Notes: generated from the sequence alone by a model not told the origin. Positions 15,530 through 37,092 are shown, counted from the stretch's first letter. The stretch is DNA of 54,901 bases from Gammaproteobacteria bacterium (GCA_047517145.1 JAKZTI010000074.1:1-54901), one strand, 5' to 3'. Translations and numbers: made by a program.

Positions 15530-16249
15530 TCAAGCACTCACACAAGTAAGATACGCCTGTTCCAGATCCTTGGCTTTATACGTGCTTGTACATTCCTCTA
15601 TAGTGCCGATAAACGGAATGCATCCTTCATGAAGAATTGCGACACGATCACACAAGACCTCAATATCTGCCAGCATATGGGTACTGAAGAAAATTGTCTT
15701 ACCGGCCTGTTTCAGTTCGATCAGGTGTTGTTTTAAAAAGGCCCTGGCTTTTGGATCCAGACCACTCATGGGTTCATCAAGCACCATCAAATCTTTCTCA
15801 CTCATCAGACAGGCTGCCAGGCCCAGTTTCTGCGCCATACCTTTTGAAAAATCCCTGACGGGTTTCGATAGTGCTAATATGTCCAGATCAAGAATTGCAA
15901 ATAGATCTGTAGCCTTATAACTACTGTATTCAATCCCATGAAGTTCAGCCATATACACCAGAAAGTCCTTCCCTGTGAGGTAATAAGGGGGCATAAATCT
16001 TTCCGGAAGAAACACCAGATTTTGTCTTGCTTCTTTCTTTGTGTGAGCAGTACCGAATATTTCAATGTTACCAGATGTTACATCACAGAAATCCAGCAGG
16101 CACTTAATCAGCGTTGTTTTACCCGCGCCATTGACACCAATTAAACCAGTAAACTCACCTGCACTGACAGTCAAATCAATCTCATCCAAAACCCGGGTAT
16201 CGGCAAAGGATTTACAGAGTTTTCTAATGTTGATTACTGAATCAGTCAT
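15530..16249 (-). CDS. ABC transporter ATP-binding protein (ABC-2 type)
   Basis: Walker A GVNGAGKTT, signature SKGMAQKL, Walker B LMVLDEP and an H-loop (FFSTH). Confidence 0.9.
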   Translation of the reverse strand: MTDSVINIRKLCKSFADTRVLDEIDLTVSAGEFTGLIGVNGAGKTTLIKCLLDFCDVTSGNIEIFGTAHTKKEARQNLVFLPERFMPPYYLTGKDFLVYMAELHGIEYSSYKATDLFAILDLDILALSKPVRDFSKGMAQKLGLAACLMSEKDLMVLDEPMSGLDPKARAFLKQHLIELKQAGKTIFFSTHMLADIEVLCDRVAILHEGCIPFIGTIEECTSTYKAKDLEQAYLTCVSA

Positions 16250-16342
16250 AACATCATTTTTTCGACATATTACCGCTTGTTAAATTTACAGTCTTCATTA
16301 CTCAATTTAATCATAAAAAAATGCCGATAAATGATAAAGTCG

Positions 16343-16377
16343 CATAAAAATTAAAGCCCGCTATTGCGGGCTTTAAT
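16343..16377 (-). terminator. Rho-independent terminator downstream of the major pilin gene
   Basis: Perfect 10-bp stem TAAAGCCCGC/GCGGGCTTTA (16352-16361 and 16366-16375) with a 4-nt loop. On the minus strand it is followed by AATTTTTAT. Confidence 0.75.
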
Positions 16378-16402
16378 ATGGATAACGCTACAATAGAAAT
16401 AT

Positions 16403-17176
16403 TTAGTAAACGAACACCTGCCCACAATCCTGAGAGTCATCAAAGACATCATAGATATCTGTTAACGCATTAGTGCCAGCTGCATTTGCCGGAGCAACCA
16501 CCCCCGCTGTTGTCGTACAATTAGCAAATTGTGGTATGAAATTTATTGGGTCGAAGACAACAGTTGTACCTGTGGCACCGGCACCATCAGCTATGGTTAA
16601 ACGTACCACACCAGAATTAGGCAGACCATCGTCCACCTTAAGATCCAGTTCCCGCGCAACATTAACCGGGACGTTCCGGCCCATGTGCAGATTTAGACGC
16701 ACTGAACGTACTCCCGAATACCCTGCATTTCGAGTCAATATTAAAGGGCCATTAAAGGCGTTGACTGGCCCAGCCAGAAGTGTTGCATAAAATGTCTCAG
16801 TTGTAGGATCGGCGATTGCCGGTGTAAAACCACCCGATATAAATTGGGAAGCGGCTAGTTGTGTCCATAATGCTGAGGCTTCTAAAGTCGTATTATCAAT
16901 ACGTCCGTTGCCATTGCCTCCAATGAGCTGAGCAACTGCTATACCCAGTGCCGGTGATGCATTTGCTGCAGACCAGTCACCCGGGACCTGACGATAGCGA
17001 TCGATAAAGCCGAAGTAAGCCGCTTGAATGCCGGAGTTCTGATCCGCAAGGTTTCTTACTCTTGCACTATTAATGAGTTCCTGGCCCTTTAAAATACCAC
17101 CCAGTAAAAGGCCAATAATCACCAATACAATTGCGATTTCTACGAGTGTGAAACCCGCCTGTTTTCTGTTGTTCAT
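16403..17176 (-). CDS. Type IV (MSHA/T2SS-like) major pilin precursor, unusually long at 258 aa
   Basis: MNNRKQAG|FTLVEIAIVLVIIGLLLGG is a class III signal peptide with Gly-1, Phe+1 and Glu+5. A C-terminal Cys-Cys pair (CTTTAG...DSQDC) resembles a pilin D-region. The gene has its own sigma54 promoter and terminator. ATG at 17176 was chosen because the longer ORF (to 17260) would run across the promoter. Confidence 0.85.
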   Translation of the reverse strand: MNNRKQAGFTLVEIAIVLVIIGLLLGGILKGQELINSARVRNLADQNSGIQAAYFGFIDRYRQVPGDWSAANASPALGIAVAQLIGGNGNGRIDNTTLEASALWTQLAASQFISGGFTPAIADPTTETFYATLLAGPVNAFNGPLILTRNAGYSGVRSVRLNLHMGRNVPVNVARELDLKVDDGLPNSGVVRLTIADGAGATGTTVVFDPINFIPQFANCTTTAGVVAPANAAGTNALTDIYDVFDDSQDCGQVFVY

Positions 17177-17230
17177 CTCTATTGTTCTCACTTTACACTC
17201 CTCTTTCATCCAGTATTTGCTTATAAGTAC

Positions 17231-17246
17231 AGCAAATGTCATGCCA
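17231..17246 (-). promoter_or_regulatory. Sigma54 (-24/-12) promoter of the pilin gene
   Basis: The minus strand reads TGGCATGACATTTGCT, against the consensus TGGCAC-N5-TTGCW with exact GG/GC spacing. It lies 55-70 nt upstream of the pilin ATG. Confidence 0.75.
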
Positions 17247-17284
17247 TATTTATAACTCATTGATTTATTTAGTTTTATATCTGC

Positions 17285-17330
17285 TTCAAGCTTGAAAAAA
17301 ACAAGCTCTTTTGATGAAGCATCATCAAAA
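17285..17330. promoter_or_regulatory. Two perfect palindromes upstream of the sigma54 promoter (candidate enhancer-binding sites or a terminator)
   Basis: TTCAAGCTTGAA (17285-17296) and TTTTGATGA-AGCA-TCATCAAAA (17309-17330) lie 40-85 nt upstream of the -24 element. The function is not established. Confidence 0.35.
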
Positions 17331-17388
17331 CTGTCGAGATATCAACAAACTGGTGAACGTCATATGGTAGTGCGACAGGATGAGTCCA

Positions 17389-18129
17389 CTATTTGTCTTT
17401 ATCATTTTCACGTTCTAGTCTATCGAGCCGATCAAGTAGAAATTTAAGCTCATGGGCATCTGTGATTGCACCACTTTCCAGTAAACCGCCAATCAATACT
17501 TTTGCACTTTCTATTTCGCCCATATCCTCCAGAACATATATTTCCATTTGCTTTACCCAGGGAGGGATATCTTTCACGGTTACCTGTTGGGCAACTGCAT
17601 GCGCATATTCTAATGCCAGTGGATAATCTTTAAGCCTGTGCTTGGCAACATAAATCGCATGAATCATGGACGGCCAGCGCCGATCTGGATCTTCGGAAAA
17701 TTTTTCAGAAATAAACTCCAGCATTTGACGTTTTTTTTCATCGTCTGTAACAACACCATAAACACGACCCGCAGCCAGTAGCGGATACTGGCCTTTGGGA
17801 TCCAGCGTTAAAATTCTTTCCAGCCAGTTGATGACCCGTTGATAATCGAGATTTTTAAATGGCACACTGACCCCTGGTTGATTATCAAACGCCTGTAACC
17901 AGAGCATAAATAATTTCGAAATCGCAATAGAATCTCCCAGACCCATCAATTGCGACTCTATTTTCGAAGGCGGCTCAGGCAGTGACTTGATATTTATCGT
18001 TGCCAGCGCACCTGAACTTGACCAATAAATTTGAAAAAGAAAAGCAACAATTAAAGTAATGATGATAACTGCAGGAACATCTTTTACTGAACGTTCATCT
18101 GATCTGTTGAGTAAACGCCAAAAATTCAT
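17389..18129 (-). CDS. Membrane-anchored helical-repeat (TPR-like) protein of unknown function
   Basis: 246 aa with a single N-terminal TM (VPAVIIITLIVAFLFQIYW) and an all-helical remainder. I recognise no family. It lies between the pilin gene and the ABC-2 permease gene. Confidence 0.5.
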   Translation of the reverse strand: MNFWRLLNRSDERSVKDVPAVIIITLIVAFLFQIYWSSSGALATINIKSLPEPPSKIESQLMGLGDSIAISKLFMLWLQAFDNQPGVSVPFKNLDYQRVINWLERILTLDPKGQYPLLAAGRVYGVVTDDEKKRQMLEFISEKFSEDPDRRWPSMIHAIYVAKHRLKDYPLALEYAHAVAQQVTVKDIPPWVKQMEIYVLEDMGEIESAKVLIGGLLESGAITDAHELKFLLDRLDRLERENDKDK

Positions 18130-18169
18130 ATGTCAGTAGTACCCTTAGTCTTATGATTTAAAATAAACA

Positions 18170-18311: not shown

Positions 18312-19088
18312 TTAAAAATTCTTTCTGTTTAAATCAAAACATGCTGCAGCGAATAGCAAGACAACATAGATAATCGTCTGTCCGGCAACAAACATATATT
18401 CACTGCCACCACCTCCACCATAGACCAACCATTCCGTTTTGCTAAATTGATCAAGTTCGGGGAGCAAGGTTGCTATGATATCGACAACCACATTAATTAT
18501 TTTATGAGAGATTGCTGCCGTTCCCAGAATAGGACTATCGCCCATCAACTGGATGGTACTGATCGTCCGTGCCAGTAAATAGAATGCCACAACTGAAGAA
18601 AATGCTGTGGTAACATTTTTAAATGTGATAAGGCATAACAAGGATAAGGCCGTGAGAATCCATAGTTCACAAATCAAAGAAAAACACCATAAGATCAGCT
18701 GTGAAGTAGTATCGATTAAAGCCAACGGAATGCAGACGATTATGGCAATAAACACAGCCAATAGACAAAAACCGAGCATCTTTCCAGCAAGATATGAATA
18801 TCTATCCACTGGAAGAGAAATAATTAATTCAAGTCCCTTGTCATTAAATTCCCTTATTGTGCTTGTGATCACAAAGATGCAAGTGATAAACACAGCAAAA
18901 AGTCGCAGAATCATCCCTGTTATCGCACTTTGAATTTGCGTAGTTTCAGTAACTGCCAGCTCACCAATGAACTGCGTTAATCCGAACAGGCATACGACAC
19001 CTACCAACACCACTGTAAACAGACGGTTCTTGATACTCTCTATTAGAGTAAACCTGGCAATCGTTAATATGGGCTGTATCGTTGTCAT
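18312..19088 (-). CDS. ABC-2 family transporter permease
   Basis: About 258 aa with six predicted TM segments in a NosY/ABC-2-like layout. The likely partner ATPase is at 15530-16249. The ORF opens at TTG 19106; the first ATG is at 19088. Confidence 0.6.
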   Translation of the reverse strand: MTTIQPILTIARFTLIESIKNRLFTVVLVGVVCLFGLTQFIGELAVTETTQIQSAITGMILRLFAVFITCIFVITSTIREFNDKGLELIISLPVDRYSYLAGKMLGFCLLAVFIAIIVCIPLALIDTTSQLILWCFSLICELWILTALSLLCLITFKNVTTAFSSVVAFYLLARTISTIQLMGDSPILGTAAISHKIINVVVDIIATLLPELDQFSKTEWLVYGGGGGSEYMFVAGQTIIYVVLLFAAACFDLNRKNF

Positions 19089-19172
19089 ACTGTATTCTGT
19101 TTGCAATCCATGAGTACTATACTATAGCGCAGTTAATTGAATGGCTTCCTGCATAAAACTTTATTCCAGATA

Positions 19173-20846
19173 ATGATAATGTTACCCAAAATAGTGAAAA
19201 CAAGACAAGAAGAGCTGGTTCTTCTGACAATGCTGGAGACGTTCCATTTCGCGATATGGTACGAAATCGGGAACTATGTAAGCCAGTCACTATTACTCAT
19301 TCATTTTGGTATGTTCCTGATCTGGCAACCAATCCTGAAAGAAAATCAGGATATCACATGGGCCAAAAGCCTCCTGTTTATTGCTTTTACACTGATCCTG
19401 GTTTACTGGGTCAACTGGATTTCGATAACACTGTGGCTGGTGCTGCTCATCGGATTTGTCGGTGGCCGTGTCACCACCAGACGTCATGAACGAAATGTGT
19501 ATATGTTCGTGATGGCATTCCTGATCTTTGAATTACTGATTTCTGTTGTCCCACAGATGTTTAGCCTGTCGCTAAACAAAACTATTTATAATGCGTATCT
19601 AATTGGAATGCCGTTTATACCCCTAATATTACTGATAACACCAAACACTTTTACTAGGAAACGCGATGAAACTGTCGATATCCTGCTTGCCACAACGATC
19701 TCATTTATGGCAGTTATTCTGGCGCTCGGTAGTCTGGTCTTGATGTACCACAATAATACCGATTACATTATCTCTCTGATTCAAACGTTGCTTGCTGTTG
19801 GTATTCTTTTGATTTCTATCAGCTGGCTTTTGTCTCCCCATAGTGGTTTTAGCGGTCTCTCTCAATTATGGACCACATCTTTATTAAATATTGGAACACC
19901 ATTTGAACAATGGCTTGCTAAGCTTTCCAGGCAAAGACAAGCACAACAATCCCCGGCAGATTTCCTGGACACAGCAATGAGGGAACTGGTTTCACTACCA
20001 TGGATAGCAGGAGCCACATGGACAGGAGGCTCAACACATGGAATTTATGGTGAATTAACAAGGCATGAAATACATCTGGATATTAGTGATCAACCACTTA
20101 CTTTATTTACACATGTCGCCCCCGCAGGTGTTATGTCTTTACATTGTAACTTGCTGGTTCAGTTAATAGAGACATTTTACACCGCAAAGAAACAGGAACG
20201 GGAGCTATCACAACAGGCCCACTTACATGCTATCTATGAAACAGGCGCCAGGGTTACCCATGATATAAAAAATTTACTGCAGTCGTTACAGACAATGACA
20301 ACACTGCTTGACACAACTTCTGATGAAACGAAGGAAAAATCTATCGTACTATTAAAAAAGCAACTGCCTCATATTAGTCAACGATTACAGCTCGCACTAA
20401 ATAAATTGCAGGCACCAGAACAGAAATCAACAAAAAACATCCTGGCAACGATCTGGTGGAAAGAAATATCGACCCGCAGGGAAGACTCACAAATTAATTT
20501 CCAGAGTGTCATAGATAAAGATACTCTGATCCCGGAAGAATTATTCAATAGTGTCATTGAAAACCTGCTTGAAAATGCAATTCAAAAAAGACAGGTTGAT
20601 CCAGATATTGTAATCAGCGTCACCCTGAAAATTGAATCAAGCTCAATTGTACTCGCTGTCACTGATACGGGTCATGCCGTTAACGAGACAATTACAAAAT
20701 CTATATTAAAAGAACATGTCACATCAGATAATGGACATGGTATTGGGCTTTATCAGGCAGCTAAACAGGCTGAATCATTAAACTATATTTTACGGCTTAC
20801 AGAGAATCGCGATGGCAATGTCAGCTTTGAACTATCCAGGAAATAA
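19173..20846 (+). CDS. Polytopic sensor histidine kinase (PilS/PrsK-like architecture)
   Basis: About 250 aa of TM helices, an H-box ARVTHDIKNLLQSL and a HATPase_c domain (LLENAIQK...DTGHAV...GHGIGLY). The ORF opens at TTG 19137, with ATGs at 19173 and 19179. Confidence 0.8.
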   Translation: MIMLPKIVKTRQEELVLLTMLETFHFAIWYEIGNYVSQSLLLIHFGMFLIWQPILKENQDITWAKSLLFIAFTLILVYWVNWISITLWLVLLIGFVGGRVTTRRHERNVYMFVMAFLIFELLISVVPQMFSLSLNKTIYNAYLIGMPFIPLILLITPNTFTRKRDETVDILLATTISFMAVILALGSLVLMYHNNTDYIISLIQTLLAVGILLISISWLLSPHSGFSGLSQLWTTSLLNIGTPFEQWLAKLSRQRQAQQSPADFLDTAMRELVSLPWIAGATWTGGSTHGIYGELTRHEIHLDISDQPLTLFTHVAPAGVMSLHCNLLVQLIETFYTAKKQERELSQQAHLHAIYETGARVTHDIKNLLQSLQTMTTLLDTTSDETKEKSIVLLKKQLPHISQRLQLALNKLQAPEQKSTKNILATIWWKEISTRREDSQINFQSVIDKDTLIPEELFNSVIENLLENAIQKRQVDPDIVISVTLKIESSSIVLAVTDTGHAVNETITKSILKEHVTSDNGHGIGLYQAAKQAESLNYILRLTENRDGNVSFELSRK

Positions 20847-20858
20847 TAAAAGATACCC

Positions 20859-21620
20859 TTAAGGAAGTATTCCCGCCTTAACAGTCATAGTCCTCATGAT
20901 ATGCGGAGATATCCAGATCAGCAAATCATCAAATTCAGCACCTGCTGTTGCGCTATAATCCTTTTCTACAAAAATAAGATCGCCATTGGTATTCTCAGTT
21001 TCATCCGGTGAGGCTGCAGTCGACCAGTTTATTCCATGAGAAACCACAACAGCAGGTATATTGATTGCAACGGTATTCCCGGCTACAGCAGCATCATTAA
21101 TGATTATCTCTCCATCTGAACAAAGTGAAAAAGAGACATTCAGCGTAGCCGAAGCTGTTTCACAACCCGTTCCATCAGTTGTCGCATTACCTCTGTCTGC
21201 GAAGGTATCATCAACACGATAAGTAAAGTTGTTACTCCACTGATCTGCGCCTTTTACCCCCAGCGTGCCCCAGGGTAAATTTCCTGTTTCAGTAGCACAT
21301 GTAAGTCCACCACCAGCGGCAACAGTATCTTCTACTCCATCATTAATATCTAATGGATCGGCTGCATTGACAGCTATACAATTAGCATTCCAAGTGCTCG
21401 TGGGACAATCCGGACAAGGAAGATAATTATTCTGTAATACATGTCCGTAAAGAATTGCCTCTATATTGTCGAGCTGGAGTTGTGTGTTGTTTCGTTCCTC
21501 TTGCTCAACACGCGAAGCTAGTGGCTCCAGAAAGCTGGTCATCAATAGAGCCAGGATGAAAAGAACCATTGTTATCTCTATCAGGGTGAAACCTTGTTGT
21601 GCAGAATATTTCATTTTCAT
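20859..21620 (-). CDS. Minor pilin / pseudopilin with a canonical prepilin N-terminus
   Basis: MKMKYSAQQG|FTLIEITMVLFILALL. It shares LPCPD and G.LPW.TLG motifs with the giant upstream protein, and its ATG lies 8 nt after that gene's stop. Confidence 0.8.
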   Translation of the reverse strand: MKMKYSAQQGFTLIEITMVLFILALLMTSFLEPLASRVEQEERNNTQLQLDNIEAILYGHVLQNNYLPCPDCPTSTWNANCIAVNAADPLDINDGVEDTVAAGGGLTCATETGNLPWGTLGVKGADQWSNNFTYRVDDTFADRGNATTDGTGCETASATLNVSFSLCSDGEIIINDAAVAGNTVAINIPAVVVSHGINWSTAASPDETENTNGDLIFVEKDYSATAGAEFDDLLIWISPHIMRTMTVKAGILP

Positions 21621-21628: not shown

Positions 21629-22504
21629 TCAGGGTGATGTATCCAGAACACGGACCTGATCGTTAAATGTACCCATTATTTCGCCAATTTGGAATCCATC
21701 ATCTCCGGCATTATTGTTCCCATTTTCATAGTAATCGCTGATACTGCCTGAAGTCCTGTCCTGAGTTGGCAGTGGGTTTGCAAGGGGCTCACCGGCACTG
21801 ATCACAATTGCCCGTTTGTTATCGTCTGGAGATCCCCCGCCAGTAAGCGTAAGGCAATCAGTACTCACAGTACATATCGCGCCGCCATTTGGACTATCCC
21901 CGGCACTATAGGCAATATAAATCAGCTGGTGCCACTTGTTTGTGAGAAGCCAGGAAGGGAAGTCGCCATTATTCTCCCACAAATAATAATCAACATTACT
22001 CAGGCGAATACTTCCGTTACTTGCTGCACTAGGCGTAAATGTGGCCCGGCCAACTTCAGTTGTTTCATCTTCTTCATAATCACGTAATGTCATTAATGGT
22101 GTGCCACCATTTCCAGAAAAATTAACTGCTGCTGTAGCGCTACAGTCTGCGTTGTATCCCATGCAGACATCTCTTACGCGTTTTTCTGAGACAGTATTGG
22201 TTGCCTGATTGCCCCTATATTTTGCATGAAAGATATGCTCGCGCGAAAAAACATAATCATGGTAGACCGTATAGGTATTACCAACCGCAAAATCATTTGG
22301 GGCCCCGTTGTACAATGTTGTTTGTATCCCTGTTCCAACTACTGCTGTAATTTCACCAACTGCACCAATGGAAGTATTTACAACAATATCCCCAACGCTG
22401 ATACCTTCTGCTAAAAAATTTGCTGATGCGTCTCTAAATCTGTCCGGTGTGCCCGTTGATAAAACACTGGTAACCGTGCCGCTATATGAATTAGCAGCAG
22501 GCAT
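21629..22504 (-). CDS. C-terminal portion of the giant pilin-like repeat protein (annotated ORF)
   Basis: There is no signal peptide or RBS of its own. The same frame stays open upstream to 22729 and keeps encoding the repeat motif (PIEFRVGDSYTIF, PDFDTAEYYRI), so this ORF continues 22597-24795 after a 1-nt frameshift. Confidence 0.7.
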   Translation of the reverse strand: MPAANSYSGTVTSVLSTGTPDRFRDASANFLAEGISVGDIVVNTSIGAVGEITAVVGTGIQTTLYNGAPNDFAVGNTYTVYHDYVFSREHIFHAKYRGNQATNTVSEKRVRDVCMGYNADCSATAAVNFSGNGGTPLMTLRDYEEDETTEVGRATFTPSAASNGSIRLSNVDYYLWENNGDFPSWLLTNKWHQLIYIAYSAGDSPNGGAICTVSTDCLTLTGGGSPDDNKRAIVISAGEPLANPLPTQDRTSGSISDYYENGNNNAGDDGFQIGEIMGTFNDQVRVLDTSP

Positions 22505-22596
22505 AATGCGATAATATTCAGCAGTATCAAAATCAGGGGCAATCGCTGAAGTATAATTAACAGTGCTTAATTGTGTTTCGCTAGAGACGCTTGTAA

Positions 22597-24843: not shown

Positions 24844-25482
24844 TCAATTCTCTGGTATTGCTATTTCATTTTCACTTTCCACAATATCAAGCAGGATTCC
24901 ATCATTTGGTTCGTAGGTCTGCCCTACTTTAAGATCAAATTCAAGATTAACCTCTGGGACAGTCACAGATACTTTCTCACTGTTAATGTCACCCGTATTG
25001 ATGCGGAAATATTCAGAGGCGAGACTACCCTCATAACTGTTAGTACCATTTATCCATACAGTACTTTTGCCGCCTTTTCTGTATACAAGGCCATTTAAGG
25101 TAATCCCCTCGATATCGGGCTCCTCAATTTCTTCAGCTACTTCGTCAATTAATTCAACAGGGATTTCAATTTCCTCAATGGTTTCTGGTTCGGGTTCTGC
25201 GTAACGTAATGCCTGTAATTTCCTTCTCTCTTCCGGTGTCGTAAACAATCGACCAAAATCATCGGATGCTGCCTGGGTAAAAGAAATACCACTCAATGCA
25301 AAACTTAATGTTAGTAAACTGCCTGAAATAAATTTAAGGTATCTCTGATCAAGTATGCACTCCGTCATGCTGGTGAATACCAGCATCCAGTAAGTAATTG
25401 TTTTGACTAGATTCTGGCATGCGCCAGAATGACGACTTAATGTGTTTTGGGACTTAATCAGAGGCTCCTTAACATTATTCAT
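24844..25482 (-). CDS. Bitopic or periplasmic assembly protein (MshK/PilP-position)
   Basis: Hydrophobic segment LKFISGSLLTLSFALSGISFTQAA followed by an acidic linker and a beta-rich C-terminus. Its start overlaps the upstream stop (ATGA). The family was not recognised and the call is positional. Confidence 0.35.
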   Translation of the reverse strand: MNNVKEPLIKSQNTLSRHSGACQNLVKTITYWMLVFTSMTECILDQRYLKFISGSLLTLSFALSGISFTQAASDDFGRLFTTPEERRKLQALRYAEPEPETIEEIEIPVELIDEVAEEIEEPDIEGITLNGLVYRKGGKSTVWINGTNSYEGSLASEYFRINTGDINSEKVSVTVPEVNLEFDLKVGQTYEPNDGILLDIVESENEIAIPEN

Positions 25483-28898: not shown

Positions 28899-30614
28899 TC
28901 AAGACTGTTTTAATCTTATGGAAAGATCTACCACTCTGGAAATTTCTTCAAGACTGGAAGAACCATCAAGAACACGGTCAGTCCCGACTTCGATTAATGG
29001 TTTAAAGCCCTTGGACAAAGCAGTTCGTAGTAAATCACTTTGACTGCCCTTCTTGGCAAGTACTTCATCCATCTCATTATCAAATGTCAAAATCTCTACC
29101 AGGGCCAACCGCCCTTTATAGCCCATATTATCGCAGGCCTGACAGCCTTTCGCTTTATAGATTGACTGTTCTCTATCAGTGGCTTTCAACCCGAGTAAGT
29201 TTCTTTCCAGACTTCCCAAGACATAGGATTCGCGGCATTTCTCACATAATTTTCTCGCCAGACGTTGGGCAACAATGCCTATCAAATTGCCAGCAAGAAT
29301 TTCCGCTTTTACACCAATATCTAATAGTCTTGGAATGGCGCCTATTGCAGAATTTGTATGCAGCGTTGAAAAAACCTGATAACCAGTCATTGCCGCACGT
29401 AATGCCATACTTGCCGTATCTTCATCACGTATTTCACCCACCAGAGTAATATCCGGATCCTGACGCATCAGAGATCGAATCCCGCTGGCAAAATCAAGTC
29501 TGGCTGTTTCGCTGATTGATGTTTGGCGTATCAGGTTGGTTGGATATTCCACCGGGTCTTCAAGCGTCATAATGTTTACTGACTCGGTATTAAGATAATT
29601 CAATATCGAATAGAGTGTTGTTGTCTTACCACTACCGGTAGGGCCAGTCACCAGGATGATCCCTTCAGGTCTTGCTACCATTAATCTTAAAGCCTCCATG
29701 GCATCTTCTCGTAGCCCCAGCTCATCCAGACCAACAATCCCCTTCTGCCTGTCAAGGATACGTAATACGATATTTTCACCATGAACTGTTGGTAACGTCG
29801 ATACGCGAAAATCAACCTGCCGTCCTGAAAAAGTCAGGGAAATGCGACCATCTTGCGGAGCACGAACTTCTGCGATATCCATACCAGCCATAACCTTCAC
29901 TCGAACAGCAATTGCTGACCAATAGCTCTTGTGTAAACTGCGGATTTGTCTCAGCACGCCATCAATGCGATAGCGAAACCTGAGAAACCCTTCCTCTGGT
30001 TCAAAATGTAAATCTGAAGCACCACGTTTTACTGCATCCGTTAATAAAGCATTCACCAGACGTACCACAGGCTGACTATATTCATCACTAGCTGTGTCCA
30101 TACTTTGATAATCAATTTCGCCTGTCTCGATTTCATTTAAAATGCCATCAACAGATAGTTCGAATCCGTAAAACACGTCAATGGCTTTTTCTATTTCAGC
30201 TTCGCCGGCAAGTAATGGCATAATTTCAATATCTTGCCCAACATGAACGCTTATTTTATCTGTTAAAACAACGTTAAACGGATCTGTCATTGCAATGGTC
30301 AACTGATTGGTATTACGTTCAAAAGTGAGTGGCAATATGCGCAGTTGCCGTGCCATATCTTTCGAGATCAAATTGATTGCATCACTATCTGGAATAGCAC
30401 GATCGAGATCGACACTTTCCTGGCCAATCGCACCACCAATGACATCACGAATGATTGCTTCTGTTGCAAACCCAAGGCGCACCAGAATTTTCCCTATCAG
30501 ATCACCGCTACTTTTTTGCTCAGTTAGTGCAATATCTATCTGATCGGAAGTTGTAACCCCCTGTTTGACGAGGATCTCGCCTATACGAAGCGCTTTCTTA
30601 TGTGTGCCAGTCAC
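28899..30614 (-). CDS. GspE/PilB/MshE-family assembly ATPase with an N-terminal MshEN domain
   Basis: Walker A GPTGSGKTT, Asp/His boxes, a tetracysteine motif (CEKC...CQAC) and an N-terminal RIGEILVKQGVTTSDQIDIALTEQ-KSSGD-LIGKILVRLGFATEAIIRDVI. The GTG start overlaps the upstream stop by 1 nt. Confidence 0.9.
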   Translation of the reverse strand: MTGTHKKALRIGEILVKQGVTTSDQIDIALTEQKSSGDLIGKILVRLGFATEAIIRDVIGGAIGQESVDLDRAIPDSDAINLISKDMARQLRILPLTFERNTNQLTIAMTDPFNVVLTDKISVHVGQDIEIMPLLAGEAEIEKAIDVFYGFELSVDGILNEIETGEIDYQSMDTASDEYSQPVVRLVNALLTDAVKRGASDLHFEPEEGFLRFRYRIDGVLRQIRSLHKSYWSAIAVRVKVMAGMDIAEVRAPQDGRISLTFSGRQVDFRVSTLPTVHGENIVLRILDRQKGIVGLDELGLREDAMEALRLMVARPEGIILVTGPTGSGKTTTLYSILNYLNTESVNIMTLEDPVEYPTNLIRQTSISETARLDFASGIRSLMRQDPDITLVGEIRDEDTASMALRAAMTGYQVFSTLHTNSAIGAIPRLLDIGVKAEILAGNLIGIVAQRLARKLCEKCRESYVLGSLERNLLGLKATDREQSIYKAKGCQACDNMGYKGRLALVEILTFDNEMDEVLAKKGSQSDLLRTALSKGFKPLIEVGTDRVLDGSSSLEEISRVVDLSIRLKQS

Positions 30615-32365
30615 TACTGCAAATCGGCCTGATTTGACAATGTGTTGATGCGGGAAATAACCACGGCGCTGTCAAAACTTACTGCAGAATTATCTGCCAG
30701 ATCCAGTGCTACATTATAATAATCAATAGCTGATTTCTTTTGACCAACATGCTCAAGGCTGACAGCCAGATTAAAGGCATAATCAGCATTTGAAGATTCT
30801 ATTCTGTGCGCATCAAAAAATGATTGTTGCGCCTCAGGCCAGCGGGTCTGTGCAGCATAAAGACGAGCCAGGGAATAATGTAGAAAAGAATTATCAGGCT
30901 CACTCTGCAGAAAAGTCTTAAGGATACTTTCACTTCTTGAATGGTCTCGATTGTCCTTAAAGTTTATTAGTGCTGCTTCTGCAACAATATCCCCGGGATA
31001 TAATCTTAGGACTTCAAGATAATTGATATAGGCCTGGCGAACATCGCCTCTATGTAATGATACCGCTGCCAGTCCCAGTAACGCATCACGATTTTCAGGT
31101 AAATTATTTAAAACAATAAGATAATTTTTTTCAGCAGAGTCAAAATTACCTGCGAGATATCCCTCATAGGCTTTGTTTACTAACACACTGCTCTTATCAA
31201 CTGATTTACTACGACTGATTTTAATTAATTCTGGTTCAGGTGTTATTTTTTCTGGCAAGGACAAGGCAAGCTCTTCAACAAGCTCATCTCTGGTAGCATT
31301 TTCTTCAAAAGAAATATCGTCTGACGGATACCAGATTTTTTCCTCGGCCTCATCTGCTGCACTAACAGAAGCCTCTGTTATCACCTCTTGCACAGGTTCA
31401 TTGATAGCAACACTTTCATCTGCAGGTGTTTCCTGGCCTTCAACAACGGTGACATTCTCTTTCTCAATGACATCGGTAATCTCACCTGTAAACAACCTGC
31501 TATCAACCTCTGCAGCAAATACTAAATCTTCTGGTATCTCAATTGCTGGCACTGGCTCGGATTGTGTTTCAATATCCCTGGCAACTAATGGGGATTTAAT
31601 CGATCGTTCAACTGGAACAGTGTAGTTAAACACAAAGAAAGACAAGGAAACTGCAATAACAAGACACAGAATGGCAAAGACACCCCATTGAAAGATCTGG
31701 TTGCTAGTGCTTCTGGAAGTTGCCGTAAACACCGTCTGTGCAGCAACCGGAGTCGGGCTATCAGCACCTATGTCCTCTGCTAATTGCGCAACAGAAACTG
31801 TTGAACTGAAATATTCATCTGCAGCATCTGATATAGTCTCAGAATAAATTGGCTGCTCTGCCTGAACCGTATCCTCTGCATCGCCCGTTGAGGTTTCAAC
31901 AGTTTCATCCTGCACTGATGTGCCTTCAGAGACAGTAATTTCACCGATTTCCAGTTCCAGTTCTGGCTTATCGGCCATTGCAAGCTGCTCTTTTTCCTCA
32001 ACAGATGATGAATCTGTTGTTGACGTCTCGGCGTGTGACAGATCCTGTCTTGATGGATCATCACTTTCCTTGCTTTCAGCAATTGGCTGCTGGTCTGTAT
32101 TGGGCGAAAGTGATAAATCTTCCAGCTGGCTGGTAATATCCAGCTCATCCTGATTTTCGACAGGCGGTACCAGCTCTTCATCGTTCTGATCAAGATCAAT
32201 TGAATGATCTTCCATGCTCAATTCTTGTATAGCCACATCGTCAGCCTGACTATCTTGCTGAGACAATTTATCCTGGGGCAAGTTGTCTTGCGCTTCTTTT
32301 AGACGTTTTGCCGCCGCTTTTTTATCCTGTTCCGCCTTTTTCAAGGCGTCCATCAACAGGCTCAT
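30614..32365 (-). CDS. TPR-repeat protein (MshN-like) with a long acidic N-terminal region and one TM
   Basis: Residues 25-205 are D/E/S/T-rich. The TM is IFQWGVFAILCLVIAVSLSFFVF. The C-terminal ~200 aa carry several TPR-like repeats (AYEGYLAGNFDSAEKNY..., ALLGLAAVSLHRGD...). Confidence 0.6.
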   Translation of the reverse strand: MSLLMDALKKAEQDKKAAAKRLKEAQDNLPQDKLSQQDSQADDVAIQELSMEDHSIDLDQNDEELVPPVENQDELDITSQLEDLSLSPNTDQQPIAESKESDDPSRQDLSHAETSTTDSSSVEEKEQLAMADKPELELEIGEITVSEGTSVQDETVETSTGDAEDTVQAEQPIYSETISDAADEYFSSTVSVAQLAEDIGADSPTPVAAQTVFTATSRSTSNQIFQWGVFAILCLVIAVSLSFFVFNYTVPVERSIKSPLVARDIETQSEPVPAIEIPEDLVFAAEVDSRLFTGEITDVIEKENVTVVEGQETPADESVAINEPVQEVITEASVSAADEAEEKIWYPSDDISFEENATRDELVEELALSLPEKITPEPELIKISRSKSVDKSSVLVNKAYEGYLAGNFDSAEKNYLIVLNNLPENRDALLGLAAVSLHRGDVRQAYINYLEVLRLYPGDIVAEAALINFKDNRDHSRSESILKTFLQSEPDNSFLHYSLARLYAAQTRWPEAQQSFFDAHRIESSNADYAFNLAVSLEHVGQKKSAIDYYNVALDLADNSAVSFDSAVVISRINTLSNQADLQ

Positions 32366-33982
32366 TTACCTTGCCCCCGATCCTTCTAGTGGCAATGTTC
32401 CTTGAGGTGGCAATAATGATTCTCGGGAAGGATTGAGGTACTGTCGATAATCACTCAGGTCACCAGCCAGACTGGGGTCCTGAATAATGGTCGGCTGTAT
32501 AAAGATGACCAGCTCCGTTTTTTCGTAGTCCTTGGTTGTCGTTTTGAAAGCAGCACCTGCCCCCGGCACAGCAGAAACACCTGGCAACCCATCGACGCTA
32601 TCCGCAGAGACATCCTGCATCAAGCCGCCTAACACACCAATCTGTCCATCGCTCAGTCTCAACATGGATTCAATTTCTCTAACTTCAATCTGTGGTACCG
32701 GATTCGTTTGGCCCGCCGGGATAGAAGGATTAGGGTCATTAACAAACTCAGTGACTCGCGAGATAGTCGGTCTGACATTCAGGGAAATTGTTCCATTCGC
32801 GGAAATCTGAGGGGTCACCGACATGACGATGCCAACTGGTACAGTTGCTGCAGTGGTATCTACTGTCGTCACTGAACCTCCTAATGCGCCAATCGTAGTA
32901 TCTGCTTCAATCTCAAAATAGACAATATTTTCGACAACCTTGAGAGTCGCTGTCTGGTTATTCAATACCATGATCTGTGGGCTGGACATGATCCTCACAT
33001 TACCAAATTCATCCAGCAGACTGACCGTCGCCTCAAACTTATTGTCCCTGTTGGTATTGGGATCCTGATACTCAATAATGAAATCGCTAAGGGTCCCGAC
33101 GGGCACCCCTGTAAGGGTCGTCGAGATAATATTGATACCTGCCTTGGTTACCGATTGTAAGATTGACCAGTCAATCCCCGCCTGATATTTATCACTTAAT
33201 TGCACCTCGGCGATGGTCACCCGAATCAGCGCCTGCCGTAGAACACTTTTTTGGGTCTGGTCGATGAATTCCTGTATCTGCTGATGTTGCGCTGCCGTTG
33301 CCCGCACGGTGACGATGCCTGCTTCCGGATTGGGAATGACTGTATACTCACCACCTGCTTCCTCTCCTAGGATCGCGGAGATATTCAACATCAGTGTTTC
33401 CCAGAAATGGTGATTCGAGATACTAGTAACGTCTGTGGTGGAATTATTGCCTCCCCCACCGGAGTCTTCCCCTCCCCCACTGGTAGAGGAAATCTGGGTA
33501 GCTACCGTATTAGTACTAACGGTGTCACGCGACATATTGACGTAATCGATTGTGTAGGTCCTCAGATAAGGCACATCCGGCTGGATAAACAGATTTTCCC
33601 CGTTAAATTCATACCTTAAATTTACCTGCCGCGCGATACGATCAAGGATCTGGGGAAAGGTCTGATCAATGGCATTAATCGTCACCACACCTTCAATCGT
33701 AGGATCAATATCAACATTAACCTGGGCATCCCGAGCCAGTGCAAACAACAGTTCTTTAACGGGCACTTCATTGACAACAACAGTATATTTTTCGAGTTCG
33801 ACTGCGGGTGCGGGTGCCAGCAATACGGGTACCTGCGTCACCAGTTCAGGGATATCACCTGCAGCTTGAGTCTCTTCACTGATGTGCCCGGGTGAGGGAA
33901 CAAATGGCTTAGGTTCGATTTCTGAACAAGCGGTTAGAAATAATATCTGAGCTAAGCTGCTGATTAATATGAGTTTCTTCAT
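32366..33982 (-). CDS. Outer-membrane secretin, lipoprotein type (MshL-like)
   Basis: Lipobox LFLTAC|SE, a Gly/Ser-rich linker and a secretin C-domain (SSPQIMVLNNQTATLKV...GIVMSVTPQIS...VPG.GAAFK...ELVIFIQPTI). Confidence 0.9.
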   Translation of the reverse strand: MKKLILISSLAQILFLTACSEIEPKPFVPSPGHISEETQAAGDIPELVTQVPVLLAPAPAVELEKYTVVVNEVPVKELLFALARDAQVNVDIDPTIEGVVTINAIDQTFPQILDRIARQVNLRYEFNGENLFIQPDVPYLRTYTIDYVNMSRDTVSTNTVATQISSTSGGGEDSGGGGNNSTTDVTSISNHHFWETLMLNISAILGEEAGGEYTVIPNPEAGIVTVRATAAQHQQIQEFIDQTQKSVLRQALIRVTIAEVQLSDKYQAGIDWSILQSVTKAGINIISTTLTGVPVGTLSDFIIEYQDPNTNRDNKFEATVSLLDEFGNVRIMSSPQIMVLNNQTATLKVVENIVYFEIEADTTIGALGGSVTTVDTTAATVPVGIVMSVTPQISANGTISLNVRPTISRVTEFVNDPNPSIPAGQTNPVPQIEVREIESMLRLSDGQIGVLGGLMQDVSADSVDGLPGVSAVPGAGAAFKTTTKDYEKTELVIFIQPTIIQDPSLAGDLSDYRQYLNPSRESLLPPQGTLPLEGSGAR

Positions 33983-34116
33983 AATATATTGTCCACGATC
34001 ACAGTAAAGGGTTAAACTCCTTCATAGTATAAACTAAAAAATCATAATATTGCTATAAGCACTTAATATTTCATGGTTTTTACAGAATCATTCTGGAACC
34101 AGACTTCTTCGTAAAC

Positions 34117-35583
34117 CTATAAAATAGGCCTGTATATAATGGATGAACATTTTTCGCATATCACCCCGGAACTTCCCCCTGATTTAAATTCAGGTGGAAT
34201 CTCCAGCAACTGTTGCTTAAAACGCTCAAACTCGGATTCACTCATGCCAATGGCGATTGGTTCAGGCAACACCAATGATACATCTTCCTTTTCTGATATA
34301 TAGGAGGTTTCTTTTAATTTATCATCCTCAAACAAGGCATCCAGGTCAGAAGGAGATGTAATCTTTTTATCTTTAATCAATGCACCCAGGTCCGTCAATC
34401 TACTATCTTCATTGCTCGTAACATTCTCTTGTCCGGATACCAGTTGCTCAGGCTCCACTATTTCCGAGAACACAAATACTTCATCATGCTGAGGTAAATA
34501 TTTTGTTTCGACTTGCTCTTCCTCAGCACTACTTTCTATCACTTCAAGGTCATCAGTCTGCTCCAGTCCAGAGACCTCGGCCAGGGTCTGATCTTCAGTA
34601 GAGACAGATGCCTCTGTAACCTGGGCATTTGTTGTCTTTGCATGGGTATCTAATGACTTTTGTATTGTCTGTATTCCCTGATTGATTTTTGCAGGAAATA
34701 AGAACCCCGCCGTCAGTACAAGAAATATCAAGACGACCATGGAGACCATAACCGGTGTCAGAGATGTTCTGCGTTTGTGAAATTCGCTATCGCGCGCAGC
34801 AGCCTTTACATGGCTTGATATTACCTTGTGCGTATTCCCGGCATAGGCAGCAATCAAAGCCTTGTCCGCCAGGATATTGATGCGCCTTATCAGACCTTTT
34901 GAATGCTTTGAAATGGCACGAACTGCGGAGGGTGAGAAAACATCCTCCGAACGATAACCGCAAATCCGCATCCGGGAATTCAGATAATCCCTGACCTCAT
35001 CTATCTTGAAAGGTGCTAATAGAAAACTATAGGTAATTCGTTCCTTTAACTGCCTGATCTCGCGTGTCGCAATCTTCTCGTCAAGTTCGGGCTGGCCAAA
35101 CAGCACAATCTGTAACAATTTATTTTGCGTGGTCTCCAGATTGCTGAGCAATCGAATTTCCTCAAGCGTAGCAATGGGCATCCCCTGAGCCTCTTCGACA
35201 AACACAACAATCTGTCGATTATCTGCATGCCTGTCGAGCAAATAATTTTGCAACTCGTTCATCACCTTCAGGCGATTGTCCGTTTCGGTGACATTCAGCT
35301 TCAACTCAAAGGCGATCGCGTGCAGTATGTTCTCAGGAGATAAACTGGGATTGGCGAGATAGACAACCTCAACATTTTCGGGCAACTCAACTTCTAGCAT
35401 CCTGCACAGCATGGTTTTTCCACTACCAACTTCTCCCACGACTTTGACGATACCTTCACCTTCTGTGATGGCATAAATGAGTGCCTCAAGTACAGCACCA
35501 CGATTTCCACCCGGGAAGAACAGACTGGTGTCTGGCGTAATTTTAAAAGGCGGTTGTTTTAGCCCAAAGTATTCGTAGTACAT
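34117..35583 (-). CDS. ExeA/MshM-like AAA+ ATPase with a TM helix and an acidic C-terminal extension
   Basis: MYYEYFGLKQPPF..., Walker A GEVGSGKT, Walker B VVFVEEAQ, and a TM at residues 276-297. The 190-aa acidic tail shows no recognisable peptidoglycan-binding domain. Confidence 0.8.
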   Translation of the reverse strand: MYYEYFGLKQPPFKITPDTSLFFPGGNRGAVLEALIYAITEGEGIVKVVGEVGSGKTMLCRMLEVELPENVEVVYLANPSLSPENILHAIAFELKLNVTETDNRLKVMNELQNYLLDRHADNRQIVVFVEEAQGMPIATLEEIRLLSNLETTQNKLLQIVLFGQPELDEKIATREIRQLKERITYSFLLAPFKIDEVRDYLNSRMRICGYRSEDVFSPSAVRAISKHSKGLIRRINILADKALIAAYAGNTHKVISSHVKAAARDSEFHKRRTSLTPVMVSMVVLIFLVLTAGFLFPAKINQGIQTIQKSLDTHAKTTNAQVTEASVSTEDQTLAEVSGLEQTDDLEVIESSAEEEQVETKYLPQHDEVFVFSEIVEPEQLVSGQENVTSNEDSRLTDLGALIKDKKITSPSDLDALFEDDKLKETSYISEKEDVSLVLPEPIAIGMSESEFERFKQQLLEIPPEFKSGGSSGVICEKCSSIIYRPIL

Positions 35584-35586
35584 TAG

Positions 35587-37092
35587 TTATGTTGTCTCCA
35601 CATCAATGCCCAGGCGCTGCATCCTGCTATAAAGTGTCGTGCGATTTAATCCAAGTAATCGCGCAGCCTTGCTCAGGCTGCCGCCGCTTAGACGCATGGC
35701 ACCCAGGACATATCTCTTTTCACGTTCGTGCAGCACAGTATCCAGTTGAAAAGTGCCGCTTGATAATGCCTTTTCGATTCGCGAGAACTCATTATCCGTA
35801 TCATCACTGGGTGGAATCAGAATATTTGTTTCTAGCTCAGCCTGTAACTGGTCGGCACTGACTTTTTTCCTGGAGTACTTGGCACCCAATCGAATGACGA
35901 TATTGCGTAATTCCCTGACATTCCCGGGAAATGAGTATTCCATTAGTAACTTCTCAGCATCTGGTGTCAGGGAGAATAAATCCGCACCAGTGGAATAAAG
36001 CTCACGAAAATGATTTAGTAACAGCAAACAATCACCTTCTCTTTCGTTCAAGGGCGGTACGTGTACAGTCAGGACGCTGATCCGATGATATAAATCCTGC
36101 CGAAACTCTCCAGCACGAACAGCCTGTTTCAGGTCTTTGTTGGTCGCAGCAATAATTCTCGCTTTGGAAACCCGTGTGCTGGTCTCTCCCAGCCGATAAT
36201 ATTCACCATTCTCCAGCACTCTTAAAAGTTTTGCTTGAAGATTAAGCGGTAACTCACCAATCTCATCCAGAAACAAACTGCCCTCTCCAGCATCTTCAAA
36301 AAATCCTGTTCGAGTTGTGGTCGCGCCTGTGAAAGCACCTTTTGCATGGCCAAACAACTGTGCTTCCAGTAATTCGGCAGTGAATGCCGCGCAATTGATG
36401 ATCAGGAAAGGTGCTTCGGATCGAGCACTTTTATTATGCGTATATTGTGCAACCAGTTCTTTACCACTGCCTGATTCACCTTCAATTAAAACCGGGAAAG
36501 GCGTATCAGAAAATTGATCAATCAACTGGTGTAATGTGGTTATCGCAGGACTTTCGCCAAGTAGACTGCTATCACTTTGACTCTGTTCATCTTCAGCTAA
36601 TTCTGCTTCAAGCATCATCATCTGATGGTTCAGCCTTGCCTGTAATAATTTTACATCACAGGGTTTGGGCACAAAATCGACGGCCCCAAGTGTCAGTGCA
36701 TGCCGAATGTTGGCCTTTTCACTTTGACCGGAGAGCACAAGAATTTTTATGTTGTAATTGAAGGCCAGTAATTCATCGATTAAGGCAAAACCTTCATCTG
36801 GCAAATGTTGCACAGGAGATAGTCCCAGATCGACCAGAGCCAGAGAAGGAACCTTGTCCATTTTTTGCAAAAGTGAGTTTGCTTGCGCACGACTTTCAGC
36901 AACAGTGACCTGAAAATCTTCCTCAAGCACAAGTGCCAGAGGTTCGGCGATCAGTGGATCATCATCAACAAGGAGTAACGCAGGTTTGTCCTTTTTGACC
37001 CGATCTACCCTTTTATCTTGATCTAGGTGAGCAATGTTTGTTTTCGCCAAGACGTCTCCCTCTGCGGGATTCGAGAAAGGTTGAACATACAT
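35587..37092 (-). CDS. Sigma54-dependent response regulator (NtrC/PilR class)
   Basis: REC domain (LLLVDDDP...LVDLGL), AAA+ domain with GESGSGKE and the sigma54-contact loop GAFTGA, and a C-terminal Fis-type HTH (LSKAARLLGLNRTTLYSRMQRLGI). ATG at 37092 with an AAGGGG RBS is preferred over TTG at 37131. Confidence 0.9.
   Translation of the reverse strand: MYVQPFSNPAEGDVLAKTNIAHLDQDKRVDRVKKDKPALLLVDDDPLIAEPLALVLEEDFQVTVAESRAQANSLLQKMDKVPSLALVDLGLSPVQHLPDEGFALIDELLAFNYNIKILVLSGQSEKANIRHALTLGAVDFVPKPCDVKLLQARLNHQMMMLEAELAEDEQSQSDSSLLGESPAITTLHQLIDQFSDTPFPVLIEGESGSGKELVAQYTHNKSARSEAPFLIINCAAFTAELLEAQLFGHAKGAFTGATTTRTGFFEDAGEGSLFLDEIGELPLNLQAKLLRVLENGEYYRLGETSTRVSKARIIAATNKDLKQAVRAGEFRQDLYHRISVLTVHVPPLNEREGDCLLLLNHFRELYSTGADLFSLTPDAEKLLMEYSFPGNVRELRNIVIRLGAKYSRKKVSADQLQAELETNILIPPSDDTDNEFSRIEKALSSGTFQLDTVLHEREKRYVLGAMRLSGGSLSKAARLLGLNRTTLYSRMQRLGIDVETT

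Follow-up and report, generated by a model that had tools for sequence, protein, structure and literature searches.

Gene content of the filament locus

The 54,901-nt stretch of DNA analysed here, hereafter the window, comes from a Gammaproteobacteria bacterium (GCA_047517145.1, JAKZTI010000074.1:1-54901) and contains a 21-kb gene cluster that encodes a type IV filament machine, probably a pilus related to the mannose-sensitive haemagglutinin (MSHA, or MSH) pilus. Listing of the open reading frames (ORFs) combined with Pfam and NCBIfam scans placed the whole core string on the minus strand, where it reads sigma-54 regulator-M-L-N-E-G-I-J-K-giant protein-minor pilin (the letters follow the msh genes by similarity or position). 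An earlier note on this DNA had listed these genes in this order, and all of them were found; its broader proposal of an MSH-related filament locus whose genes are ordered differently and whose accessory set is both reduced and divergent is likewise supported. Pfam scans of the called ORFs of at least 100 aa recognized only housekeeping and signalling genes outside the locus and, as the note had observed, neither a prepilin peptidase (A24) nor the retraction ATPase PilT anywhere in the window.

The gene products were compared with those of several reference loci, namely the Aeromonas caviae MSHA region (unannotated in its record, the ORFs being assigned by their order and length), an MSH-like locus of Legionella adelaidensis, pilBCD of Acinetobacter, etp of pO157, gsp and hof of Escherichia coli K-12, and Neisseria pilF. 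By its profile and blastp scores, the secretin (L; 32366–33982, minus strand), a lipoprotein with the lipobox LTAC, is best described as MshL-like. It scored 242.3 bits with the MshL model TIGR02519, just short of the curated cut-off of 250.2, compared with 153 bits for the GspD model and 96 bits for the PilQ model (cut-off, 284), and matched Legionella and Aeromonas MshL at 163 and 150 bits, respectively, as opposed to 64 bits for GspD. The adjacent ExeA/MshM-like AAA ATPase (M; 34117–35583, minus strand; AAA_22, 92 bits) is clearly of the MSH type, sharing 41% identity over 274 aa with Aeromonas MshM (227 bits, E = 6e-74) and 38% identity with its Legionella homologue; a blastp comparison with E. 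coli GspA yielded nothing significant. The M protein is predicted to be bitopic, with an AAA domain (residues 1–270), a membrane segment (278–296) and an acidic periplasmic tail of 190 aa. The MshN/TadD position is occupied by a 583-aa bitopic TPR protein (N; 30614–32365, minus strand; TPR_16, TPR_2 and related Pfam matches) that shows weak similarity to Legionella and Aeromonas MshN (blastp E-values of 0.015–0.03) and has a predicted acidic cytoplasmic N-terminus, a membrane segment at residues 228–246 and TPR repeats in the periplasm.

The extension ATPase (E; 28899–30614, minus strand; T2SSE, 424 bits) carries an MshEN N-terminus (46 bits). Its cyclic di-GMP (c-di-GMP) motif scored 52.5 bits with NCBIfam model NF053729, above the cut-off of 38, and a tandem MshEN-type motif, RIGEILVKQGVTTSDQIDIALTEQ-KSSGD-LIGKILVRLGFATEAIIRDVIG, can be read directly; control of MshE and of the MSHA pilus by c-di-GMP is documented (PMC4624765). 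The ATPase is about equidistant from the known classes (37% identity to Aeromonas MshE, 40% to GspE and 39% to PilB). For its catalytic part E. coli GspE, at 45% identity, was the top match among the references, and in a PDB search PilB/PilF and GspE scored alike. An exact look-up of its sequence returned no record. The GspF/PilC/MshG-type inner-membrane platform (G; 27686–28891, minus strand; T2SSF, 161 bits) matched MshG, PilC and GspF at 171, 169 and 150 bits, a marginal lead for MshG, and is 29% identical to Aeromonas MshG.

The three genes that follow encode putative assembly proteins that Pfam did not recognize. For the 540-aa PilM/GspL-like protein (I; 26092–27714, minus strand), which also had no NCBIfam match, an AlphaFold2 (AF2) model built from 14 sequences (pLDDT 77) shows an actin-like domain (residues 1–295), a long helix with a membrane segment (303–367) and a C-terminal periplasmic alpha/beta domain. 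Its top Foldseek matches were PilM (5eoy and 2ych; E-values of 1e-9 to 1e-11), FtsA and the cytoplasmic domain of GspL/EpsL (TMt 0.56). The earlier reading of this protein as an MshI-like PilM/N fusion is thus supported by the PilM-type fold, although a GspL architecture fits equally well; profile comparison with the Aeromonas and Legionella proteins did not reveal a recognizable MshI. The 207-aa bitopic J protein (25479–26102, minus strand; membrane segment at residues 11–29) has the position and topology of PilO, GspM and MshJ. The 212-aa K protein (24844–25482, minus strand; family range ∼165–212 aa), in the PilP/MshK position, has a signal-peptide-like N-terminus, is predicted to be exported and carries a conserved GKSTAWING motif. 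When every member of the J and K alignments was scanned against Pfam at lax E-values, nothing beyond scattered chance matches appeared, and the K profile produced a mere 10-column hint (E = 0.019, hhalign) of the Legionella protein in the MshK position. About 300 close homologues of the I protein are either unnamed or called 'hypothetical' and have no Pfam domains, and none of the distant clusters of the family bore a name; UniRef calls one family member a 'GspL cytoplasmic actin-ATPase-like domain-containing protein'.

The giant pilin-like gene, taken by the earlier note for a separate ORF at 22597–24795 (732 aa), turned out to be one gene with the ORF at 21629–22504 (291 aa). The repeat motif of the longer ORF runs on, in another frame, into the shorter one, and in relatives both parts form a single ORF of 400–1170 aa. 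The intact 1055-aa form (P0121) is encoded on a contig (L092) whose identity to the window across 23 kb is 99.86%, with two indels only; the protein is 100% identical across the 732-aa part, and compared with this contig the window lacks one A at ∼22662, which converts GAG-ACC into GAG-CC. Because of this indel and the single ORF in relatives, we regard the giant as one minus-strand gene at 21629–24795 that is broken in the window strain. The sequence of its N-terminus, KGQAG/AVLLAFTLLII, has no E5 and resembles those of minor pilins of the GspK/PilX/MshP class. In the family alignment the N-terminal domain is conserved, the middle is variable and the conserved C-terminus ends in FNDQxRV; scanning all members against Pfam at lax E-values gave scattered chance matches. 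The AF2 model of P0121 with 26 sequences (pLDDT 73) has an N-terminal helix at residues 17–73 (57 residues), several small beta-barrel repeats of a kind whose number varies, a confident beta-rich centre and a final strand at residues 1047–1052. A similar layout has been described for CpaL, a minor-pilin-like protein with an adhesin insert, which supplies the tip complex with a C-terminal strand of its own, as GspK likewise does (PMC13533445).

Next to the giant gene lies that of a 253-aa minor pilin (20859–21620, minus strand; N_methyl 26.7 bits, TIGR02532) with the leader MKMKYSAQQG/FTLIE. Just two ORFs in the entire window contain a canonical G/FTL[IV]E prepilin motif, which bears out the view of one canonical minor pilin accompanied by a giant, the misplaced limits of the latter aside. 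The other such ORF encodes a 257-aa prepilin (16403–17176, minus strand; N_methyl 32.6 bits), the candidate major subunit, with the leader MNNRKQAG/FTLVEIAIV and a first 30 residues that are nearly invariant among relatives. A sequence search of the PDB matched only its N-terminal helix (E > 0.1; E = 0.67 for the MshA structure 9lab).

The pilin gene had been described as lying about 4 kb away from the core string, with its own sigma-54 promoter and terminator and bracketed by ABC transporter genes. This is indeed the case: it is located 3.7 kb from the minor pilin gene, flanked by an ABC-2 permease on one side and an ABC ATPase on the other, and is monocistronic between the promoter element and an intrinsic terminator. 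The −24/−12 element TGGCATGACATTTGCT (17231–17246, minus strand; one mismatch to the consensus) is found ∼55 nt 5′ of the pilin ATG, and the terminator (16350–16377, minus strand), which follows the stop codon, has a 12-bp stem with 6 G-C pairs and then a T-tract. Matches to the sigma-54 pattern occur in the window at the chance level (31 found, 32.7 expected), so that the case for a promoter depends on position and on conservation in relatives. Of 21 related loci, 16 have the same element at a distance of 56–141 nt upstream of the start of the pilin gene (56–71 nt in 12 of them), and in a control scan 13 of 19 loci had it upstream of the pilin, as compared with 0–10% for each other gene of the locus. 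We found no c-di-GMP riboswitch at the pilin; Rfam recognized only one tRNA and one S-adenosylhomocysteine (SAH) riboswitch.

The likely activator of this promoter is encoded at the other end of the string. The response regulator (35587–37092, minus strand) has REC, AAA+ and Fis-type helix-turn-helix domains (Response_reg, Sigma54_activat at 217 bits and HTH_8 in Pfam) and gave 346 and 336 bits with the NCBIfam models of NtrC and PrsR, both under their cut-offs; it probably starts at M14 (position 37092), the ORF reaching back to a TTG at 37131. Its probable partner is the histidine kinase encoded divergently at 19137–20846 (plus strand; HATPase_c), whose polytopic nature, claimed earlier, is borne out by 6–7 predicted membrane segments with no large periplasmic domain. 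Among relatives the kinase is found in 28 of the 31 loci that have the regulator and in none of the eight that do not. Of the four loci that have a pilin but no regulator, three are without the sigma-54 element, whereas most regulator-positive loci have it; although the numbers are small, the element mostly tracks the regulator, which supports a link between the two. A polytopic kinase without a periplasmic sensor domain, an NtrC-type regulator and a sigma-54 element at the pilin are features of the PilS/PilR type, PilS having six membrane segments and PilR acting in sigma-54 control of pilA (PMC6058289); the resemblance is one of function.

The ABC genes comprise an ABC-2 type permease (18312–19106, minus strand; ABC2_membrane_3, 33 bits; six membrane segments) and a DrrA/GldA-type ATP-binding subunit (15530–16249, minus strand; ABC_tran, 81 bits). 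Between permease and pilin we identified a gene that the earlier note had not mentioned, encoding a 246-aa bitopic protein (17389–18129, minus strand) with no Pfam or NCBIfam match and, in blastp against the references, a single marginal match to E. coli GspA. Scanning all members of its alignment against Pfam at lax E-values again gave scattered chance matches only. It is a conserved member of the block, its product showing 41–77% identity across the alignment. The ABC ATPase follows the pilin in every relative whose locus extends that far. An ABC transporter homologue, PilGHI, is needed for the pili of Myxococcus xanthus (PMC3724824, PMC6060248).

Conservation and state of the locus

Scanning one genome per species revealed relatives in 164 stretches of DNA. 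From these we selected the best 80 loci, which all come from metagenome-assembled genomes (MAGs) mostly labelled Gammaproteobacteria, and their gene order was compared by tblastn of every window protein. Nearly all loci that are long enough have the order metF-regulator-M-secretin-TPR-ATPase-platform-I-J-K-giant-minor pilin-kinase (divergent)-ABC-2-246aa-optional insert-pilin-ABC ATPase, and this order persists even where identity of the I protein has dropped to 37%. The gene-order survey that the earlier note had recommended thus shows that the exact string recurs in dozens of species-level MAGs and is not a one-off. Among the 39 loci with both of their 10-kb flanks (full loci), the secretin, TPR protein, ATPase, platform, I, J, giant and minor pilin are universally present (39/39) and K is present in 37. 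The regulator and M protein always occur together, in 31 of the 39, being jointly missing in eight; the ABC-2 permease was found in 34, the 246-aa gene in 32, metF in 30 and the kinase in 28.

In many relatives (L002/L003, L022, L023, L029, L058, L066, L068 and L081) an insert of 1.3–2.3 kb, absent from the window and its close relatives, separates the pilin from the 246-aa gene. That of L002/L003 (18262–19512) is an opposite-strand gene with a guanylate/adenylate cyclase domain.

The family extends well beyond these loci. A profile search of 1.84 billion cluster representatives returned 1080 clusters of I-like proteins at E ≤ 1e-30, a number that rises to 2509 at E ≤ 0.001, and most of the 150 matches listed were full-length, with 500–570 aa; tblastn of the I and 246-aa proteins against plasmids gave no match. 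The wider I family reaches the Beggiatoaceae, including Candidatus Parabeggiatoa, Thioploca, the cultured Beggiatoa leptomitoformis and Thioflexithrix psekupsensis. The string in T. psekupsensis is TPR-ATPase-platform-I-J-K with further unknown genes, and a distant locus on a 2.4-Mb contig (L095) has secretin-TPR-ATPase-platform-I-J-K-698aa with no regulator, M, kinase, ABC genes or pilin. Because distant loci carry the core alone, L-N-E-G-I-J-K-giant is the core of the system, and the regulatory and ABC-pilin parts an add-on of the lineage of the window. Parts of the core also occur apart from the rest: an I-J pair is found near RHS/YD-repeat toxin genes in the NCBI MAG GCA_016745055.1 (L093, 10001–12302), and B. 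leptomitoformis has a platform-I pair on its own (L096, 8783–11602).

The state of the locus in the clade of the window is a separate matter. The giant gene is frameshifted in the window strain, so that its pilus may be defective, and the TPR gene of L092 has a nonsense codon (NEPV-stop instead of NEPVQ). In a further sibling locus, L001 (94–98% nucleotide identity), an insertion sequence with an rve transposase has taken the place of the giant and minor pilin genes, the M and TPR genes are each interrupted by in-frame stops, with that of the TPR gene at a codon different from that in L092, and there is a 1-nt insertion near the secretin start (lesion regions 2149–7101 and 12785–14640). Genomes of the sibling clade are small, 2.3–2.4 Mb. 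The different lesions in the three siblings suggest relaxed selection on the system in this clade, where it appears to be decaying, and the locus might be a remnant without current function in the window genome, its arrangement reflecting ancestry. The deletion in the window truncates the giant and lies outside any homopolymer run; on the other hand, the giant is the single gene struck in the window, all others are intact along with the promoter and terminator, and more distant relatives retain every gene intact. Indels in long-read metagenome assemblies, including that in the window, could be errors, which is less likely for nonsense substitutions. All told, we lean away from a remnant already without function, while giving this reading some credence; it would in any case concern the state of the locus in this strain and not the identity of the system.

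The stops in the TPR genes of L092 (2443–4182) and L001 (5362–7101) are independent and split the gene near one boundary, at residues ∼321 and ∼306, respectively; in the distant L095 (5113–6806) two genes, for proteins of 294 and 269 aa, stand in the TPR position. The N-terminal, membrane-anchored half of the TPR protein may therefore be a separable unit.

Several neighbouring genes deserve mention. Directly upstream of the pilus regulator lie ahcY and metF, with gaps of ∼30–70 nt, and the conservation of the metF adjacency makes read-through from a methyl-cycle operon conceivable. The SAH riboswitch (RF01057; 39496–39583, minus strand; 45 bits at a gathering score of 37) is upstream of ahcY (38065–39480), and because of its position the ORF start listed for ahcY at 39630 must be over-extended. 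Between ahcY and metK there is a low-GC stretch (39913–45009; 34–39%, compared with ∼43–45% around it) with three signalling genes, a REC-PAS-GGDEF-EAL protein (39913–42048), a double-REC protein (42057–42782) and a PAS-GAF histidine kinase (42808–45009); these could possibly provide a local source or sink of c-di-GMP for the MshEN ATPase. On the other side of the locus, a Na+/H+ antiporter gene is flanked by genes for a PknB-like Ser/Thr kinase (12163–13593, plus strand) and a family-less 178-aa protein (13612–14148, minus strand). The last two are also found in L092, and the 178-aa gene again at the ends of L001 and L002.

Class assignment and alternative readings

According to the survey of type IV filaments by Denise et al. 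(2019; PMC6668835), MSH systems are encoded in one locus and a prepilin peptidase is missing from every MSH locus; the TXSScan MSH model lists mshA, E, G, L and M as mandatory, allows mshA to be a loner, and needs at least three of the five mandatory genes and at least four genes in total. All five mandatory gene classes are present here, so that this permissive model would probably call the locus MSH. The earlier note had counted the missing peptidase, the detached major pilin and the missing retraction ATPase as anomalies. Given the MSH properties stated in that survey, they are canonical. The MSHA pili of V. cholerae employ PilT (PMC9815625), and no retraction ATPase lies within the MSH locus of Aeromonas (L084). 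The suggestion of an undescribed sub-class therefore stands for a conserved variant and falls for a new machine.

Phylogenetic trees for the ATPase, the platform and their concatenate were built by neighbour-joining with 200 bootstraps, from which splits were counted. The family, including the distant L095, was monophyletic with 100% support in all three. Grouping with MSH received 7% (ATPase), 34% (platform) and 29% (concatenate) support, and grouping with either type II secretion systems (T2SS) or type IVa pili (T4aP) at most 4% in any tree. The placement that the earlier note had called for thus gave a separate clade with no supported tie to MSH, T2SS or T4aP, and with thin reference sampling and a simple method such trees show distinctness rather than placement.

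On this evidence we favour, as somewhat more likely than not, the view that the locus encodes an MSHA-related, c-di-GMP-gated, sigma-54-regulated adhesive type IV pilus. In this model, kinase and NtrC-type regulator would act like PilS and PilR, activating the sigma-54 promoter of the pilin. The prepilin would be cut at G/F by a peptidase encoded elsewhere, as in MSH, and polymerized on the GspF-type platform by the MshE-type ATPase at high c-di-GMP, as the observed motif suggests. The 540-aa protein, going by its modelled fold, would dock the ATPase and, with the 207-aa and 212-aa proteins, provide a link to the MshL-type secretin; the bitopic ExeA/MshM-like ATPase may, by homology, help in assembling the latter together with the TPR protein. 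A reduced tip complex, consisting of the giant and the 253-aa minor pilin, could prime the fibre, the giant being a putative pilin of the GspK/PilX class that carries a variable adhesin of its own, like Caulobacter CpaL. By analogy with PilGHI, the ABC ATPase, the permease and the 246-aa protein may serve in pilin supply or export.

A number of observations weigh against this assignment. The low bootstrap support for a grouping with MSH is one. The I, J, K and giant proteins had no blastp similarity to Aeromonas or Legionella Msh proteins, and comparison of their profiles with these proteins gave nothing either (E-values of 0.02–0.5, hhalign), albeit in a weak test against single-sequence templates. 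The pilin is unusually large at 257 aa and has no detectable similarity to MshA, and there is a single canonical minor pilin, compared with three or four in known systems. Whole-chain Foldseek comparison of the giant gave meaningless TM-scores of 0.05–0.1, only its repeat barrels matching the N-terminal barrel of F1-ATPase. The best NCBIfam matches of the kinase are PrsK and AtoS, far under cut-off. The ABC module is tied to the pilus by adjacency, which metF shares, and distant relatives do without the module. The frameshift in the window and the lesions of its siblings suggest that the system may be non-functional in this clade. Finally, the machine is deduced from gene sequences, and all close relatives are MAGs.

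The ABC genes, the 246-aa gene and perhaps the kinase might be unrelated neighbours that are held in place by the synteny of the lineage. With metF also conserved beside the locus, adjacency by itself is weak evidence of function in the lineage of the window; the Na+/H+ antiporter recurs on the other side of the locus, the distant L095 and L097 carry the core string without the genes in question, and L067, L073, L074 and L076 do not have them within 10 kb. However, permease, 246-aa gene, pilin and ATPase keep their order in every locus that reaches there, down to 37–40% identity of the I protein and despite insertions, the kinase occurs only where the regulator does, and the pilA-pilGHI arrangement of M. 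xanthus offers a precedent (PMC3724824). We therefore judge chance neighbourhood to be a minority reading, at perhaps one chance among several.

Least probable of all is a T2SS-like apparatus in which a short pseudopilus of the 257-aa protein pushes substrates, possibly the giant, through the secretin: the architecture of the 540-aa protein and its EpsL/GspL match, together with the GspL-type UniRef name in its family, would make it GspL, the 207-aa protein would be GspM and the bitopic ExeA-like M protein GspA, the catalytic part of the ATPase is closest to E. coli GspE and the locus has no retraction ATPase, but the secretin fits MshL far better than GspD, M matches MshM and not E. coli GspA, GspC and a GspH/I/J set are missing, pilin matches to GspG are limited to the N-terminal helix, the trees give T2SS next to no support, and the MshEN motif and the monocistronic sigma-54 pilin gene with its own terminator fit the usual picture of pili with a large output of subunit.

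Weak hits to PrsK, PrsR, PrsT and TIGR03015 also raised a link to the PEP-CTERM/XrtA system, which we rejected as the scores were far under cut-off and the machine is marked as a filament system by its ATPase, platform, secretin and pilins.

The MSH-related adhesive pilus thus being the preferred reading, the defensible description of the family is that of a conserved, widespread and effectively unannotated MSH-related variant, not a new machine. That it represents a distinct, widespread type IV filament class on a par with MSH, T2SS and T4aP strikes us as less likely than not, though not far-fetched. Such a class would have its own I/J/K subcomplex, a tip reduced to a giant GspK-like pilin-adhesin and one minor pilin and, in one lineage, a built-in pilin-supply module comprising a PilSR-like pair, a sigma-54 promoter and an ABC exporter. 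It would span uncultured Gammaproteobacteria and the Beggiatoaceae and could serve surface motility or adhesion in those gliding filaments; the cultured relatives T. psekupsensis and B. leptomitoformis could allow experiments. Since I, J, K, the giant and the 246-aa protein match no Pfam or NCBIfam model, this branch of filaments is largely invisible to domain-based annotation, and members of the I and giant families that bear a source name are almost all called 'hypothetical'. With one canonical minor pilin and one pilin-adhesin fusion, the locus also offers a natural test of the minimum number of minor pilins, which bears on the tip-initiation model (PMC13533445).

Comparison with known systems

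The closest likeness is to MSHA of V. cholerae and Aeromonas. The two share an MshL-like lipoprotein secretin, an MshM-like ATPase (41% identity), a TPR protein at the MshN position, an extension ATPase with the MshEN c-di-GMP motif, a GspF-type platform and a PilM-PilN-type fusion in the MshI role, as well as a nearly identical M/L-N-E-G sub-order, a single locus with neither peptidase nor PilT, and a separable major pilin. The order, however, is mshHIJKLMNEGF followed by BACDOPQ in MSHA and M-L-N-E-G-I-J-K-giant-minor pilin here, with I-J-K placed after G and M before L. Unlike those of MSHA, the I, J and K proteins are not recognizably MshI, MshJ and MshK, and the M and TPR proteins are bitopic and larger. 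There is no MshH, F, B, C, D or O, the minor pilin and the giant standing in for MshD, O, P and Q. The ATPase and platform, with identities of 37% to MshE and 29% to MshG of Aeromonas, form a separate clade, the pilin has 257 aa, and the locus has a two-component system, a sigma-54 promoter and an ABC module built into it.

In its regulation the locus resembles the T4aP of M. xanthus and Desulfuromonadales (pilS-pilR-pilA-pilGHI) and the PilS/PilR system of Pseudomonas, with which it has in common a polytopic kinase, an NtrC-type regulator and a monocistronic sigma-54 pilin gene. The genes around the pilin, for an ABC-2 permease with a small accessory protein and for an ABC ATPase, recall M. 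xanthus pilGHI, the match being one of gene class and adjacency only. Unlike T4aP loci, this one has no separate PilM, N, O and P, no PilQ and no PilT or PilD, and its PilM-like domain is fused to membrane and periplasmic parts.

The likeness to T2SS lies in the GspL architecture and fold of the 540-aa protein, the GspM-like topology of the 207-aa protein, a bitopic AAA ATPase like ExeA/GspA and an extension ATPase core that is ∼40–45% identical to GspE; the differences are the lack of GspC (PDZ/HR), H, I and J, the MshL-like secretin, an M protein that has no significant match to E. coli GspA, and the absence of any detected peptidoglycan-binding domain. The giant is comparable to the tip pilins Caulobacter CpaL and GspK in its E5-less pilin helix, conserved N-domain, variable middle and predicted C-terminal strand, whereas it has no sequence or whole-chain structural match to solved proteins, and CpaL belongs to the Tad (T4cP) class. 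With MSH-type outer-membrane parts, a GspL-like platform, T4aP-style PilSR/sigma-54 control and a PilGHI-like ABC module joined in one locus, the system illustrates the recombination of modules within the type IV filament superfamily.

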